Positions 1 through 60,759 of a stretch of DNA of 64,000 nucleotides are shown in pieces. The translations under genes and the position numbers were made by a program. The stretch is from Pseudanabaenales cyanobacterium. Lineage in GTDB: Bacteria > Cyanobacteriota > Cyanobacteriia > Pseudanabaenales > Pseudanabaenaceae. The stretch lies in contig JBBQRB010000001.1 of assembly GCA_038215315.1 (NCBI GenBank), forward strand, positions 3,999 through 67,998, given 5' to 3'. Position 1 is the stretch's first letter, and each line of letters begins with the position of its first letter. The notes under the pieces were generated by a model. The model had not been told where the DNA came from. It saw only the letters and a program-made list of their open reading frames with translations, and searched no databases.

Positions 1-78
1 TTAAACCGCCGTGATGAGTTTCTAAAAATATTTGTGCAAGAAGCCGTTAACCGCGTCATGGTTTTACTCAAACCCTAG
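1..78 (+). CDS. 3' end of an unidentified gene entering the window (…LNRRDEFLKIFVQEAVNRVMVLLKP*)
   Basis: Frame 1 is open from base 1 to TAG at 76-78; it converges on sufD with a hairpin between; too short to identify. Confidence 0.5.
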   Translation, partial: LNRRDEFLKIFVQEAVNRVMVLLKP

Positions 79-182
79 AAAAGATGTGGCGCAAAGCGCC
101 ACATCTTTTCTAGGGTTTAAGCCCAAAAGAGAGAGGCGGCGCTTCTCTCTTTTGGGTTTTATAGCAGCGCAAAGCGCTGTAA
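70..182. repeat. Cluster of palindromic elements (23-bp perfect stem 70-118 with AAA loop; collapsed family-B hairpin; family-C end)
   Basis: AAACCCTAGAAAAGATGTGGCGC-AAA-GCGCCACATCTTTTCTAGGGTTT, then CCCAAAAGAGAGAGGCGGCGC… and AGCGCAAAGCGCTGTA. Confidence 0.85.
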
Positions 183-192
183 TTTGCGAGAC

Positions 193-1566
193 TTAATGCA
201 TTTTTGTTTTTTCTAAAACAAATTGACTTAGCGATCGCTGGACTGACAATATGGGAATGCGCCCAATCGCCTCCGCCGCAAAAGCGTAGGTGAGCAACTT
301 GGCGGCACTCTCAGCATCGATCGCCCGACTTTGGAGATAGAAAATCTCGTCAGCGTCAAGTTGGCTAATGGTCGCACCATGAGCGCATTTAACATTATCG
401 GCAAAGATTTCTAGCTGGGGCTTGGTATCTACTCGCGCTTTGCCTGATAGCAGCAGATTACGGCTTAGCTGTGCCGAATCAGTTTGTTGCGCTAACTTGG
501 CGACTTGGATTTTGCCATTAAAAACAGTACGCGATTTACCATCGGCAATACATTTATGCAATTGCTGACTAGAACCATAGGGATAGTTGTGGGCAATACA
601 AGAATGGGTATCAGTAAGCTGATCGCCATCGGTATAGGCTAGCCCAGTAAGGATCGTCTCCGTCTGCTCCGCCATTTGCTGCACCATCAAGTTATGGCGT
701 GAAATCTTTGCCCCAAAGCCAATGGATTGATTTTTGTAAATGCTGTGTCTAGCTTGGGCGATCGCGGTGGTACTGATATGCACTGACTCATTACCTTGCC
801 ATTGCACCTTGGTATGATTGACCTGAGCGCCCTCGGCTAACCAAATCTCTGTGACCACGTTAGTAACGTAGGCTTGGTTATCAACCCCGACAAAGCTCTG
901 TACTAGCGTCAGATTACTGTGATTTTCGGCAACAACCAAACAGCGGGGTTGGGTAATTAATCTCCCTTGCCCCAACTGTGGCGCAGTAATAAACATCAAC
1001 TGCACAGGGTTTGTCACGACCAGATTTTTGGGAACCAAAATAATCGCGACATCAGCGATACTTGCCGTATTCAGACTGGCAAAATAGTCGGTTGCATCAG
1101 GATGTCGGGCAAGGTGCGATCGCAGTTTGGGCAAGATGCGATCATCAAGGGTTGCCAGAGTGCCAACTATTAACCCCTCTTCGATCTGCGAGCAATCTGA
1201 CAATTCTGGGCTGTATTCTCCATTCACAAAGACAATCATGTTGCCGATCGCTTCAGGAACGAGATGTTGCGACATCAGGGCATTGGCTACCTGCATATCC
1301 GCATCGCGATCGGCAAAGGTATATTCTCCTAAGATCGAGACATCGGTATATTTCCAGTCCTCGTCTTTGGTGGTGGGAAAGGTCAGGGATAGGAGGCGAT
1401 CGCTTGCAGCTTGGCGCAACTCAGCGAACACCGCAGGGGCAAGATCAGAATGCAAGCCCATCACCTGCGCCGCAAACTGTTGTCCATTTACAGCCCTCTT
1501 ACTGCGTGTACTTATCGCTGCCTTGAGTTCTTGTTCATCAATCAATTCAGAAACTTGGATAGTCAT
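193..1566 (-). CDS. sufD: Fe-S cluster assembly protein SufD
   Basis: FPTTKDEDWKYTD N-terminus; TKPQLEIFADNVKCAHGATISQLD…FYLQSR; directly follows sufC. Confidence 0.95.
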   Translation of the reverse strand: MTIQVSELIDEQELKAAISTRSKRAVNGQQFAAQVMGLHSDLAPAVFAELRQAASDRLLSLTFPTTKDEDWKYTDVSILGEYTFADRDADMQVANALMSQHLVPEAIGNMIVFVNGEYSPELSDCSQIEEGLIVGTLATLDDRILPKLRSHLARHPDATDYFASLNTASIADVAIILVPKNLVVTNPVQLMFITAPQLGQGRLITQPRCLVVAENHSNLTLVQSFVGVDNQAYVTNVVTEIWLAEGAQVNHTKVQWQGNESVHISTTAIAQARHSIYKNQSIGFGAKISRHNLMVQQMAEQTETILTGLAYTDGDQLTDTHSCIAHNYPYGSSQQLHKCIADGKSRTVFNGKIQVAKLAQQTDSAQLSRNLLLSGKARVDTKPQLEIFADNVKCAHGATISQLDADEIFYLQSRAIDAESAAKLLTYAFAAEAIGRIPILSVQRSLSQFVLEKTKMH

Positions 1567-2348
1567 TATGCCAACACCGCCTCTTCTTCCTTGAGCCAGT
1601 CATAGCCCTTTTCTTCCAGTTCTAAGGCAAGATTCTTATCACCTGTGAGAATAATGCGCCCATTTTCCATTACATGAATGAAGTCGGGAATGATGTAGTT
1701 AAGAAGGCGTTGATAGTGGGTGATCACTAAAGAAGCGTTGTCAGGAGTAGAAAGCTTGTTTACTCCACCTGCTACGATCCTCAGTGCGTCAATATCTAAG
1801 CCCGAATCTGTCTCATCAAGAATCGCTAGAGTCGGGTCGAGAATTGCCATCTGCAAAATCTCATTACGTTTCTTCTCACCCCCTGAAAACCCTTCATTGA
1901 CGCTGCGACTCAGAAATGAAGGATTCATTTCCACAATCTCCAACCGATCTTGGATAAAGTCATCAAAATCGATAATATCCAATTCTTCCAAGCCCTTATG
2001 TTTGCGAAGGTTGTTATAGGACAGTCTCAAGAAGTCAGAATTAGTCACCCCAGGGATTTCCAGTGGATATTGAAAAGCCAAGAATACACCTTCCCTAGCC
2101 CTCACTTCAGGCTTCAGCTCTAGAAGATTCTGTCCTTTATAGATCACTTCGCCGCTCGTGACGGTGTAAGCAGGATGTCCAGCTAATATCTTTGAAAAAG
2201 TACTTTTCCCAGAGCCGTTAGGTCCCATGATCGCATGAACTTCACCTGCCTTGATTTCCAGATTTAACCCCTTTAAAATCTGCACTCCATCAACATCGGC
2301 AGTCAAATCTTTGACCGACAAAATTACTTCACTATTTTCGACAATCAT
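1566..2348 (-). CDS. sufC: Fe-S cluster assembly ATPase SufC
   Basis: GPNGSGKST Walker A; [17 protein letters not shown]; [14 protein letters not shown]. Confidence 0.97.
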
Positions 2349-2380
2349 CTCTTTTCTCTTAACAATTGTTTAATATTGTA

Positions 2381-2548
2381 GTATAGCCGTCGCCAGTCTT
2401 GTATCAGGACATAAAACCCAAAAGAGGGAGGCGGCGCTTCGCGTCGCATCCCTCTTTTAGGTTTCACAGCGCTTTGCGCTCAAACCCGAACTAGTAGGAT
2501 TTTTGAAAGGGTTGCGAAGCAACCCTTTCAAAAATCCTACTATGGTTA
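2381..2548. mobile_element. Tandem MITE-like palindromes (family-B left part plus family-C hairpin)
   Basis: TATAGCCGTCGCCAGTCTTG…CCCAAAAGAGGGAGGCGGCGC; ACAGCGCTTTGCGCTCAAACCCGAAC…TTTGAAAGGGTTGC-GAA-GCAACCCTTTCAAA; homologous to 21447 and 44303. Confidence 0.75.
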
Positions 2549-58870: not shown

Positions 58871-58949
58871 TAGTTTGTGACCATGAATCGTTAAACTGGT
58901 AAAACCGCAATTTTTAAAGCAAATTTAAAATAGAGTTTTGAGTATAAAT

Positions 58950-59696
58950 ATGGGATTTTCAGAAGGTCAGGTGGCTGTTATAACTGGTGCATCTAGAGGT
59001 ATTGGACGAGCGATCGCGATCGCCCTTGCAAGTGAAGGCGCAAAGGTTGTCGTGAATTACGCTAGCTCCACCAGTGCTGCTGAAGAGGTCGTTAATATGA
59101 TTAAAGAAAAGGGCGGCGAAGCGATCGCGCTCCACGCTGATGTGTCCCACGAGGCACAGGTCGAGAACTTAATCAAATCGACAATGGACACATGGGGACG
59201 TGTGGATGTGCTGGTTAATAATGCAGGGATAACTCGCGACACATTGCTTTTGCGTATGAAGTTAGAAGACTGGCAATCAGTAATTGACCTCAATCTGACA
59301 GGTGTATTTTTAGCAACTCGCGCAGTCTCTAAAATTATGCTTAAACAAAAATCAGGACGTATCATCAACATCACCTCGGTTGCTGGGCAAATGGGCAACC
59401 CAGGACAAGCGAACTACAGCGCCGCAAAAGCTGGTGTGATCGGCTTTACTAAAACCGTAGCCAAAGAAATGGCAAGTCGCGGCATTACAGTCAACGCCGT
59501 AGCCCCAGGATTCATCGCGACTGACATGACAGCCGATCTCAAAAATACTGATGAAATTCTTAAGTTCATCCCCCTTGGTCGCTATGGTCAACCCGAAGAC
59601 ATTGCTGGAATGGTGAGATTCTTAGCATCTGACCCTGCAGCAGCCTACATTACAGGTCAGGTATTTAATGTCGATGGCGGTATGGTCATGGCATAA
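58950..59696 (+). CDS. fabG: 3-oxoacyl-ACP reductase
   Basis: TGASRGIG; NNAGITRD; NYSAAK; [11 protein letters not shown]. Confidence 0.96.
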
Positions 59697-59852
59697 ACCA
59701 GAGAAGGGTAATTTTGCACCCTTCTTTAATTTTATGAACTTCACTGTGCGATCGCGGGTCATGTCGAAGCAGGAATGTATGGCAGTATCACAACTCAACC
59801 AAGCGCGTAGAATAAGGAAATAGCTCGATTTTCAATCAAAGATTTAATCCTC

Positions 59853-60668
59853 ATGCGCTTTATACTTGCAATTTGTCTTATCTTGTTTTTACTATTTTAT
59901 CCTGCGGCGATCGCCCCAGTACAAGCACAACTAAACATTACTGAGACAGAATCAAATCAACTAGATGCCCTCGTCAAGAAAGCCTTTGACGCAACTGATG
60001 CAGGAGACTTTAAAGATGCGGAGGGCTACTGGACGGATTTGATTAAGCTTTATCCTGATAATGCTGCTGGCTGGAGCAATCGTGGTAACTCAAAGATGAG
60101 CCAAAACTTTCCACAGGAAGCTCTTGTTGATTACAACAAATCCGTAGAACTTGCCCCAAACTATCCTGACCCCTATCTCAATCGTGGAGCGGCGCTCGAA
60201 AGTTTAGGCAAATGGGAAGAGGCGATCGCTGATTACAATCGCGTTTTAGAAATTGATCCCAAAGATGCGGCAGCCTATAACAATCGTGGTAATGCTAAGG
60301 CAGGCTTAGGCAAATGGGAGGAGGCGGTCGCTGACTATCAAATAGCCATGAAAGTTAATTCACGATTTAGCACCTCCTTTGGCAACAACGCGATCGCTCT
60401 ATATGAGATCGGTACACGCGATGGCAATACGGACGGAGCGATTAAGGCAATGAAAAGCATATTACGCAAATACCCCAGCTATACCGATGTAAGAGCGGCT
60501 CTAGCCGCAGCTCTTTGGGCAAATAAAAAGCAAGGTGAGGCTGAGAGTAATTGGGTATCAGTAGAAAATCTTGATCCTCGCTATCGAGATATTAACTGGG
60601 TACAAAATATTCGCCGTTGGCCCCCATCTTTGGTATCTGCCCTAGAAAAGTTTCTCACTCTAAAGTAA
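59853..60668 (+). CDS. Exported TPR-repeat protein
   Basis: Signal peptide; repeats WSNRGN/YLNRG/YNNRGN; conserved RRWPP end. Confidence 0.88.
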   Translation: MRFILAICLILFLLFYPAAIAPVQAQLNITETESNQLDALVKKAFDATDAGDFKDAEGYWTDLIKLYPDNAAGWSNRGNSKMSQNFPQEALVDYNKSVELAPNYPDPYLNRGAALESLGKWEEAIADYNRVLEIDPKDAAAYNNRGNAKAGLGKWEEAVADYQIAMKVNSRFSTSFGNNAIALYEIGTRDGNTDGAIKAMKSILRKYPSYTDVRAALAAALWANKKQGEAESNWVSVENLDPRYRDINWVQNIRRWPPSLVSALEKFLTLK

Positions 60669-60713
60669 AAGAATAGGCTTGGCGATCTGTCGCAGCTCCT
60701 TAAAAATAAAAGA

Positions 60714-60759
60714 CAAGTAAGTGAGTGGCGGCGCTCCACGCCGCCACTCACTTACTTGG
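60714..60759. repeat. Perfect palindrome between convergent genes
   Basis: CAAGTAAGTGAGTGGCGGCG-CTCCA-CGCCGCCACTCACTTACTTG. Confidence 0.85.

Follow-up and report, generated by a model that had tools for sequence, protein, structure and literature searches.

Palindromes crowding the intergenic DNA of a Pseudanabaena genome are mostly short non-coding MITEs

The window analysed here, a 64,000-nucleotide stretch of a Pseudanabaenales cyanobacterium contig, carries palindromes in most of its intergenic gaps, which raises the question of whether these are mobile elements, and of what kind, or hairpins of the host itself. An earlier note had described a dense palindrome system, and the described sequence is present at every coordinate that it listed. 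A centre-expansion scan (stem of at least 12 bp, at most one mismatch, loop of 0–9 nucleotides) detects 42 long hairpins in the window, many of which combine perfect arms of 22–29 bp with 3-nucleotide loops; together with 29 MITE segments, these place a hairpin or MITE in 29 of the 44 intergenic gaps. The same scan of the 3.16-Mb Pseudanabaena MAG (88% complete; 5,881 HIP1 (GCGATCGC) sites attest to the identity of the genome) yields 2,059 hairpins, or 0.65 per kb, an excess of ~36-fold over the 0.018 per kb of a third-order Markov simulation. Ninety per cent of these hairpins lie outside ORFs, which themselves make up 83% of the genome.

A single BLAST component unites 1,472 of the 2,059 hairpins and resolves into six communities, each sharply bounded by TA...TA. 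The six families (A, B, C1, C2, C3 and D) comprise 1,657 copies or fragments, of which 507 are full length (~96–114 bp), and together occupy 127 kb, equivalent to 4.0% of the genome. Each has its own terminal inverted repeats of 13–30 bp starting with TA, and its own central, near-perfect palindrome of 16–26 bp with a 3-nucleotide loop closed by GC/GC. The palindromes are mostly ~100-bp non-coding MITEs, a known kind of element that is unusually dense here, plus ordinary terminator hairpins (Table 1). What is unusual is the density, the perfect central palindrome of each family, the loop inversions and the symmetric double substitutions.

Table 1. Palindromic elements of the window, by family
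Feature	Position	Strand	Remarks
Family A MITE, full length	8135–8232	-	terminal TTA is stop codon of ORF 8230–9789 (-)
Family A MITE, without one terminus	9868–9949	-	
Family A core fragment	11183–11226	-	A-type terminus at 11174 precedes
Family A MITE, truncated	14950–15013	-	convergent gap
Family A MITE, full length, 105 bp	25882–25986	-	
Family A central palindrome alone, without terminal repeats	27890–27945	-	
Family A partial copy	33391–33448	+	right terminus ends at 33461
Family A MITE, full length	35602–35704	-	
Family A MITE, right terminus degraded	37953–38050	-	
Family A MITE, without left terminus	43850–43927	+	
Family B core fragment	119–162	+	
Family B MITE, partial	2382–2464	-	orthologous site of relative G015: same terminus, different core
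Family B MITE, partial	6884–6966	+	
Family B MITE, full length	16872–16969	-	
Family B fragment	18206–18259	+	
Family B MITE, full length, 114 bp	21447–21560	-	
Family B core only	23117–23177	+	
Family B-like core fragment	60719–60760	+	
Family C1 fragment	6732–6777	+	
Family C1 MITE, full length	6985–7089	-	terminus matches IS630-type IS of relative G009
Family C1 MITE, partial	17099–17187	+	
Family C1 MITE, partial	18256–18343	+	
Family C1 MITE	42184–42377	-	interrupted by full family D MITE, 42194–42284
Family C1 terminal fragment	47405–47443	-	
Family C2 MITE	2466–2562	+	
Family C2 fragment	6809–6859	-	
Family C2 MITE, full length	44303–44407	+	
C-type termini, further core variant	33274–33380	.	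28-bp perfect stem at 33297–33355
C-type termini, core variant as at 33274	38070–38175	.	
Family D MITE, full length	4322–4413	-	inserted beside A-like hairpin 4288–4322
Family E, hairpin and conserved 3' tail, not TA-bounded MITE	12644–12720	+	
Family E copy	35507–35580	+	
Family E copy	58756–58835	+	
Unique terminator-like hairpin	5396–5430	.	versus contig L249: loop flip and 7-bp arm deletion
Low-copy 27-bp perfect palindrome	11090–11148	.	loop orientation varies among three conspecific sequences
Unique perfect 22-bp hairpin, without repeat partner	17440–17486	.	
Unique A-tract / GC stem / T-tract hairpin	20764–20796	.	convergent gap, bidirectional-terminator shape
Unique hairpin	42923–42967	.	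convergent gap

The five families originally proposed, A to E, are borne out. One consensus fits all ten A sites, the three B sites are joined by five further partial copies, and both D sites are recovered. The C sites divide, with 6985, 42184 and 44303 belonging to C1/C2, and 33274 and 38070 carrying C-type ends around another core variant. Family E is real, separate and low-copy (~29 copies) with a conserved 3' tail, and TA-bounded inverted termini are absent from its copies. The proposal that intact A–D termini begin with TA holds at both ends for 420 of 506 full-length copies. The GC-NNN-GC apex is likewise present in 94–98% of three-nucleotide-loop hairpins genome-wide (C-G loop closure in 1,202 of 1,225), but loses its value as a sign of common machinery, because 70 of the 95 terminator-like hairpins that are unique and have a 3-nucleotide loop also possess it.

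These unique hairpins, which share the apex and are more frequent per convergent (0.27) than divergent (0.11) gap, bear on the view that none of these palindromes is mobile, each being an intrinsic terminator that evolved on its own or some other structure of the host. The GC-rich stems with A/T runs on both sides would fit this view, as would a terminator scan that returns 45 sites per 20 kb against an expected 17.7 ± 4.5 (~2.5-fold) and the lack of any presence/absence polymorphism among three conspecific sequences. It is nevertheless very improbable, given ~1,650 copies in six ~100-bp families with sharp TA boundaries, termini equal to those of IS630-type ISs, identical copies at different loci and nested insertions with TA duplication. 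For families A–D, common termini and nested insertions refute the terminator reading, which is valid only for the ~300–500 further non-repeated hairpins, which are the genome's own terminator-like structures.

Mobility, as the earlier note had supposed, is documented by 95–105 full-length copies whose flanks are contiguous elsewhere, mostly through nesting inside other MITEs. The best-scoring junction at these sites has one TA in 73 cases, no TA in 17 and TATA in 14, and gapless spanning matches give 29, 1 and 2, respectively. The TA is the duplicated insertion target, as read from paralogous rather than orthologous empty sites, with ~30% of cases fitting another junction better; no motif beyond TA was found in the insertion flanks. 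Within the window, the D copy at 42194–42284 is inserted at a TA of its C1 host, with the TA duplicated. In addition, a twin at another locus exists for 15 family A copies at 100% identity and for 54 at 98% or more. Termini are shared genome-wide. Eight MITE copies compared with two conspecific metagenome contigs (98–99% identical, ~9.5 kb) exhibit no presence/absence difference, and ongoing transposition is thus not demonstrated.

Distinct IS630/Tc1-mariner-family (HTH+DDE_3) ISs in congeneric genomes have termini that match those of A, B, C1 and C3, in line with the IS630 connection suggested earlier. The A partner is an intact 1,075-bp IS of G014 (L267 626–1700) whose A-type termini measure 27 bp and whose HTH+DDE_3 ORF encodes 345 aa; A-type IS ends also occur at contig ends of G015 (seven cases), and G001 has a decayed copy. 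Past the outer 7 nucleotides, the A MITE agrees with the G014 IS ends at only ~70–75% of ~25 positions. Partners of B are IS ends in G010 (L218) and a 960-bp IS in G002 (L170). The C1 end equals the first 15 nucleotides of a 1,032-bp IS with at least 24 copies in G009 (L219 999–2030), which is also found in G012, and the C3 end is identical over 20 nucleotides to a G012 IS end (L272 1341). For D and C2, no IS partner was identified among the genomes searched. The MAG itself retains a C-type remnant, a transposase 3' end plus terminus, at a contig end (C55:1-127) and further C-type IS remnants on C234 and C210. Intact transposases of the A, B or D type are absent from this assembly, which is 88% complete. 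As the earlier note had stated, no transposase is encoded in the window. The single trans-acting machinery that it proposed is not supported, given these at least four IS630-family ISs with different terminal repeats.

Spread as REP/REPIN-type repeats by a RAYT, an HUH Y1 nuclease that acts on hairpins of single-stranded DNA, had also been considered. GTAG-tagged REPs are reported in Anabaena, Nostoc and Cyanothece, and abundant intergenic palindromes are common to both systems. Many REPs carry a GTAG/CTAC tag (PMC3733652) that recurs in the termini of family A, apexes of the form C-GNA-G point to stable DNA hairpins, and the genome encodes one Y1_Tnp domain. However, on either side of this only Y1_Tnp stand three copies of an unrelated 20-bp palindrome with zero loop (26 copies genome-wide, none in the window), and GTAG is absent from families B, C and D. 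Moreover, REPs are 20–40 bp, flank their own RAYT gene and are without terminal repeats or target duplications (PMC3733652), in contrast to the elements here with their TA duplication and their 13–30-bp terminal inverted repeats, which equal the ends of IS630, such that spread by RAYT appears extremely improbable.

We consider it quite probable that at least six IS630-related, TA-inserting MITE families have colonised the non-coding DNA of this Pseudanabaena MAG. Matching or closely related IS630 transposases would have cut and pasted the MITEs in trans, each recognizing perhaps ~25–30 bp per end, as ISY100 does. Copies would persist only where they are harmless, i.e. between genes. Overlap with stop codons is restricted to family A (17 of 159 copies; 0 in other families), where copies may also be tolerated because the TAAG end restores TAA. 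Judged from its sequence, the central GC-rich stem flanked by A-/T-runs resembles a bidirectional intrinsic terminator in shape, which probably makes copies tolerated or useful. Family A is found in divergent (promoter) gaps as often as in convergent gaps, and thus a terminator role is not required for retention.

RUP, which is linked to IS630-Spn1 and targets TA, resembles these families, as do other IS630-derived (type I) MITEs, in being non-coding and multi-copy with IS630-related terminal repeats and TA insertion. Compared with RUP, at least six families co-reside here, their near-perfect central palindrome is distinct from the terminal repeats, and the copy number per Mb is roughly ten times higher. 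Correia elements, which insert at TA and influence transcription of neighbouring genes, are also very dense MITEs filling intergenic DNA; they have no separate central perfect palindrome, unlike the families here, and we know of no cognate transposase for them, whereas four families here have matching IS630 partners in congeners. RUP of Streptococcus pneumoniae is ~107 bp long, and the Correia elements (NEMIS) of Neisseria 104–157 bp (PMC3184786). Similarly high MITE loads characterize bloom-forming or filamentous cyanobacteria, including the MITEs of Anabaena sp. 90, MaeMITEa-h of Microcystis aeruginosa NIES-843 (517 copies, 1.8% of the genome, with many IS630 ISs alongside; PMC2779907) and Nezha, whose terminal repeats are shared with an IS known only from another species (PMC3184786). 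The present elements are shorter than those (96–114 versus 130–435 bp), denser (4.0% of the genome) and genus-restricted within the sample searched. The mechanistic model is ISY100 (ISTcSa) of Synechocystis PCC 6803, an IS630/Tc1-mariner element of 947 bp with 24-bp terminal repeats and an HTH + DDE transposase, which inserts at TA with TA duplication and for which ~30 bp of each end suffice in cis (PMC2170065). The same domains recur in the partner ISs, which are 960–1,075 bp long; ISY100 is autonomous, whereas the window elements are all non-autonomous derivatives.

Family A occurs in 11 and D in 10 of 12 same-genus species, both in none of eight from other genera, and copy numbers differ widely among congeners. 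Database records with the family A core are from Pseudanabaena/Pseudanabaenales only, which, like the HIP1 sites, bears out the identity of the genome. The MITE sequences match no phage record, no Rfam family and only two plasmid records, both unannotated Pseudanabaena plasmids, and we found no account of these elements for Pseudanabaena in the literature, consistent with the novelty suspected at the outset.

Independent IS630 origins do not explain the common plan of the six families, with its perfect central palindrome and GC-NNN-GC apex, nor the AAAACCCA motif at the stem foot in four of them. The central hairpin could instead be a separate small mobile or replaceable module entering different carriers, a true mix-and-match; such a module would be comparable to very small dispersed repeats that have been reported from Nostocales. 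About one-third of family A cores have no recognisable termini, and some solo cores, such as 27890–27945, are TA-bounded with unrelated flanks, yet eroded A flanks are still visible at many such 'solo' cores. C-type termini surround at least four core variants, but these share the outer stem and differ near the apex only, as paired divergence predicts. The shared stem-foot motif and the different core at the G015 orthologous B site also favour a module. So might the 25 bp that are present at the centre of the palindrome in conspecific contig L249 and absent from the C1 fragment at 6732–6777, although this difference is a deletion within an existing palindrome. Genome-wide, however, core type is tightly coupled to terminus type: core 'a' is found with A termini in 194 cases and with another family's terminus in ~20, which are explained by adjacency or nesting. 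Mix-and-match is thereby not supported, and a separate hairpin module is unlikely.

With the IS630-related MITE families as the preferred reading, one further feature concerns the stems themselves. Loop inversions and symmetric double substitutions distinguish strains that are 98–99% identical. We infer that recopying of one arm from the other keeps the stems paired and makes the loops flip, with intrastrand template switching or recombination between arms as candidate routes. The family B copy at 6884–6966 displays both changes with respect to the conspecific contigs, its loop being flipped and positions 6892 and 6930 symmetrically substituted.

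The inverted-repeat search and a centre-expansion scan together detect 42 window hairpins (stem 12–29 bp, at most one mismatch), the majority of which have perfect arms and 3-nt loops. All positions listed in the earlier note contain features as it described, and its statement that such elements occupy most intergenic gaps holds, with at least one hairpin or MITE in 29 of the 44 window gaps. The MAG as a whole (3.16 Mb, 282 contigs, 43% GC, 88% completeness), of whose contig C1 the window covers 64 kb, contains 2,059 hairpins, or 0.65 per kb compared with 0.018 per kb in a third-order Markov simulation, and 90% of them fall outside ORFs when genes are modelled simply as the longest ORFs (83% coding). 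Loops of 3 nt are present in 60% of the genome's hairpins, with 98% of these closed by C-G and 94% bearing a GC-NNN-GC apex; their sequences are chiefly GAA/TTC, GCA/TGC and GGA/TCC, the two orientations being near-equal in number. Rfam covariance models give no match at gathering score against the 64-kb window. The cyanobacterial HIP1 octamer occurs 5,881 times, compared with approximately 44 expected. An rpoB comparison, against records without this genome and its near relatives, yields distant cyanobacteria only. Matches in an exact-pattern scan with the core (the central palindrome) of family A, one of the repeat families, are confined to Pseudanabaena/Pseudanabaenales records, among them P. 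biceps PCC 7429, FACHB-1998 and the complete BL-A-41 genome, which identifies the present genome as Pseudanabaena.

All-against-all BLAST of the hairpins with 70-bp flanks places 1,472 of them in a single component, which Louvain clustering divides into six communities, namely families A, B, C1, C2, C3 and D. The six consensuses derived from the alignments have sharp edges with TA at both ends, and each combines its own family-specific terminal inverted repeats with a central near-perfect palindrome. Small (96–114 bp), non-coding and multi-copy (48–573 places each), these elements belong, as RUP does, to the type I MITEs derived from IS630. A back-search with the consensuses finds 1,657 places (507 full length) that cover 127 kb or 4.0% of the genome. 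Of the non-coding DNA, such sequence makes up roughly a quarter here and probably much genus-wide. The TACAGC…GCTGTA ends that the earlier note assigned to one family C are shared by three related families, plus an extra core variant. The left end of most C1 and C2 copies is a 19-bp mini-palindrome, TACAGCGC-TTT-GCGCTGTA, that includes both terminal hexamers and likewise has a GC-NNN-GC apex; it resembles a fusion of two ends.

Duplication of TA is a hallmark of IS630/Tc1-mariner transposases. Both ends are TA in 420 of 506 full-length copies, and empty sites were sought by joining the two 45-bp flanks of each full-length copy by nothing, TA or TATA and searching the junctions against the genome. 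The flanks of approximately 100 copies are contiguous elsewhere, chiefly because the copy is nested in another MITE, as can be read directly within the window for a family D copy inside a C1 copy. A single-TA junction is best in 73 of the 105 cases with a paralogous empty site (no TA, 17; TATA, 14), and 29 gapless spanning matches contain a single TA, compared with 1 and 2 for the other two junctions. The prevalence of single-TA junctions thus indicates a 2-bp TA target-site duplication; besides TA, no motif is found in the flanks of insertions. ISY100 of Synechocystis inserts nearly always at TA, which becomes duplicated, and approximately 30 bp of each end suffices (PMC2170065).

Scanning the DDE_3 loci of 13 congeneric genomes for MITE termini reveals IS630-family ISs whose ends match those of families A, B, C1 and C3, and whose transposases contain HTH_Tnp_IS630 or HTH_32 together with DDE_3 domains. 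The IS matching family A has 27-bp termini that start with the A-type TAAGTAG motif; A-type IS ends are also observed at seven contig ends of the nearest species (G015) and flank a decayed transposase in another relative (G001, L189). The C1-type IS, of which G009 contains at least 24 copies, is identical to the C1 end over its first 15 nt. For families D and C2, the DDE_3 loci of the same 13 genomes provide no IS partner. In G010 and G012, DDE_3 remnants have D-like termini close by, but only as neighbours that do not bound the transposase gene. The MAG itself retains C-type pieces only, namely a contig end with the last 36 transposase codons and a terminus, and further remnants in contigs C234 and C210; Pfam searches of this genome return one DDE_3 remnant. 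The spacing of terminus pairs in the MAG has no peak at IS size, indicating that no autonomous copy is assembled. The IS630-type machinery suggested in the earlier note is therefore borne out by the matching termini and the duplicated TA, but the single machinery it envisaged is replaced by several transposases with different end specificities. Overall, these sequence comparisons leave an IS630/TA mechanism well supported.

Table. MITE families, IS partners in congeneric genomes (G-numbers; L-numbers, individual loci or contigs) and other features of the window and the MAG (C-numbers, contigs of the MAG).
Feature	Location	Length	Description
Family A consensus		105 bp	
Family B consensus		114 bp	
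Family C1 consensus		105 bp	
Family C2 consensus		105 bp	
Family C3 consensus		104 bp	
Family D consensus		96 bp	
Family A partner	G014 L267 626-1700	1,075 bp	intact IS; one 345-aa ORF, HTH + DDE_3
Family B partner	G010 L218		IS ends: first 13 nt exact, ~27/30 overall
Family B partner	G002 L170	960 bp	IS, four copies, related ends
Family C1 partner	G009 L219, also G012 L268	1,032 bp	IS; two ORFs (HTH_Tnp_IS630, DDE_3)
Family C3 partner	G012 L272		IS end identical over 20 nt
C-type IS remnant	C55:1-127		contig end
Nested copies	window 42194-42284 in 42184-42377		family D inside C1
C-family core variant	window 33274, 38070		
C1/C2 mini-palindrome	window 2466-2484, 44303-44321 (examples)	19 bp	left end
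Family A copy	window 25882-25986		similar copies in G007, G014
Family E copies	window 12644-12720, 35507-35580, 58756-58835		
Stretch compared with L248, L249	window 4246-13784		conspecific metagenome contigs
Symmetric double substitutions	window 6892/6930, 8156/8204, 8167/8193		
Y1_Tnp match	C11:2949-3248		
Y1_Tnp region	C11:2700-3500 (L081 964-2601)		
Two-gene pair	window 202-2384		
Second copy of pair	C20:36-2235		75% identical

The earlier note had also considered a RAYT-type machinery, and a RAYT gene flanked by the same termini was sought genome-wide. The single Y1_Tnp match of the Pfam search in the MAG, a RAYT-like domain, lies outside the window and in frame within a 545-aa ORF that also encodes the C-terminal domain of a Type ISP restriction enzyme. 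On either side of it are three copies of a palindrome of 20 bp with no loop, CAAGGGGCTTAAGCCCCTTG ('RGLSPL' when translated), which is present in 26 copies genome-wide and none in the window, and the whole resembles a small REP-RAYT unit that entered the gene with the frame intact. Flanked by a different, unrelated palindrome, this sole Y1_Tnp domain of the MAG does not account for the window's elements. REP units are 20–40 bp long, carry a GTAG or CGTC tag and cause no target-site duplication; the TA duplication, the ~100-bp units with terminal repeats and the restriction of GTAG to family A likewise argue against membership of the REP/REPIN class.

When each hairpin is assigned a core type and a terminus type, the latter from termini up to 75 bp away, the coupling of core and terminus is tight (a-A, b-B, c-C and d-D), which speaks against the proposed mix-and-match assortment of cores and ends; the few exceptions are accounted for by neighbouring or nested elements, and many cores without recognisable termini retain eroded family flanks. 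The GC-NNN-GC apex is also found in 70 of 95 hairpins with 3-nt loops that have no repeat partner, and many of the partnerless hairpins are plain A-run/GC-stem/T-run structures, a bidirectional-terminator shape that is shared by the MITE cores. The GC-rich stem-loop followed by a T-run is that of an intrinsic terminator, and terminator-like sites, mostly these hairpins and on both strands, number 45 per 20 kb compared with 17.7 expected. Hairpins without a repeat partner are over-represented in convergent gaps, and family A is present at 0.21 per gap in divergent and convergent gaps alike. In our reading, the hairpins comprise mobile MITEs on the one hand and terminator-like structures native to the genome on the other, and may act as terminators. 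Overlap with the stop codon of an upstream ORF is restricted to family A (17 of 159 full-length copies, and none in the other families), the end of which reads TAAG; insertion at the TA of a stop codon would be harmless only if the element restores the stop, which we offer as an explanation for this restriction. Despite their different IS630 ends, all six families have a perfect central palindrome, and four of the six share an AAAACCCA motif at the foot of the stem, a common plan that independent IS630 origins do not account for.

For 15 family A copies, a 100% identical twin exists elsewhere in the genome, and for 54 there is one of at least 98% identity; young copies are also found in C1 and D, while those of B and C2 are old. 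The elements may be active at the present day. In a single metagenome scan comparing three sequences, the window and two conspecific contigs (L248 and L249), no MITE presence/absence difference is observed, all eight copies within the shared stretch being present in each; orthologous gaps in the nearest species differ in content, but are too diverged for the junctions to be defined. Family A is present in 11 and family D in 10 of the 12 same-genus species searched, compared with none of eight other genera of the class, and first-look candidate counts range from ~10 to ~540 per genome across the relatives. We note that family A copies in two relatives (G007 and G014) are 93–94% identical to a window copy, whereas orthologous genes are only ~75% identical, which suggests either IS/MITE transfer between Pseudanabaena species or strong sequence constraint.

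Relative to the family consensus, stem positions change approximately as often as non-stem positions, and in family A, positions changed on both arms are Watson-Crick paired in 310 cases and unpaired in 11, these counts being of copies rather than independent events. Both loop orientations are found among co-oriented copies (GCA 65 and TGC 57 in family A; GAA 59 and TTC 28 in C1). L248 and L249 are 98–99% identical to the window over 7 kb, yet the loop is reverse-complemented in at least one strain at six of nine shared hairpins, with L248 and L249 also differing mutually in loop orientation. In addition, the comparison reveals three symmetric double substitutions and, in the window strain, deletions within two palindromes, and per-base differences are ~4–10% in hairpins compared with ~1% in genes. 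Template switching and arm-to-arm recombination are known for quasipalindromes and plastid hairpin loops, and either process could recopy one arm from the other; the loop flips and symmetric changes fit such arm recopying, as judged from these alignments. Loop flips can also arise as an assembly artefact, because the loop orientation of a perfect palindrome can be assigned wrongly by short-read assemblers; however, the complete genome CP192607 contains both orientations among its co-oriented A copies, three versus two, albeit in a small sample. A joint reading, which we regard as rather doubtful, is that the central palindromes are DNA-level structures, cruciforms or single-strand hairpins, that, with extra-stable C-GNA-G mini-loops, would often extrude in vivo, such that arm recopying and loop inversion would proceed at least at the rate of base substitution, and that the palindrome module, being beneficial, would have arisen convergently in six or more independent IS630 MITE lineages. 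The benefit could lie in joining the two ends of the ~100-bp element for synapsis, or in providing a harmless bidirectional terminator.

Cyanobacterial precedents include the MITEs of Anabaena sp. 90 (PMC3542288) and Nezha (PMC3184786), the latter differing in size from the elements here (130–170 bp, with ISNpu3-type ends, from a secondary source and compared by description only). Correia elements reach a similar density, and MaeMITEs occupy 1.8% of the Microcystis genome with 517 copies (PMC2779907). In a survey of 183,232 genomes, the most MITEs in one genome were 468, also in a cyanobacterium (PMC11602168), which places the load here at the high end, with the proviso that the survey methods differ. 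Literature searches for MITEs or repeats in Pseudanabaena found no relevant paper, and phage records gave no match to the elements; plasmid records matched in two Pseudanabaena plasmids only, at ~75% identity and unannotated.

The MITE load accounts for the fragmented assemblies: a MITE is found no more than 60 bp from 59 of the 564 contig ends of the MAG (~10%), family D being the commonest (20), and contig C55 begins inside an IS630 transposase, indicating that the repeats limit assembly, with IS copies collapsing at contig ends. Intergenic 'motifs', apparent terminators and small RNAs of Pseudanabaena should be screened against these families first, and the families are ready strain-typing markers for this bloom- and odour-associated genus. 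The matched IS/MITE pairs (A, B, C1 and C3), from a tractable transposase family, could serve to study how very short elements are mobilised, while the near-perfect palindromes, whose loops flip and arms change symmetrically between near-identical strains, offer natural data on the maintenance and correction of palindromes in bacteria.

Two genes near the start of the window have a second copy in the MAG, explicable either by divergence of paralogous pairs or by the binning of a contig from another Pseudanabaena. Family E of the earlier note is real (~29 copies), but lacks TA-bounded inverted termini and is thus a different thing from the MITEs. Each copy combines a hairpin, whose stem shows covariation across the copies, with a conserved 3' tail, GGTTTCATAATGAGAATTGCTG; it may be a structured RNA, or else form the end of a different element. 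One copy adjoins an IS end in the nearest species.
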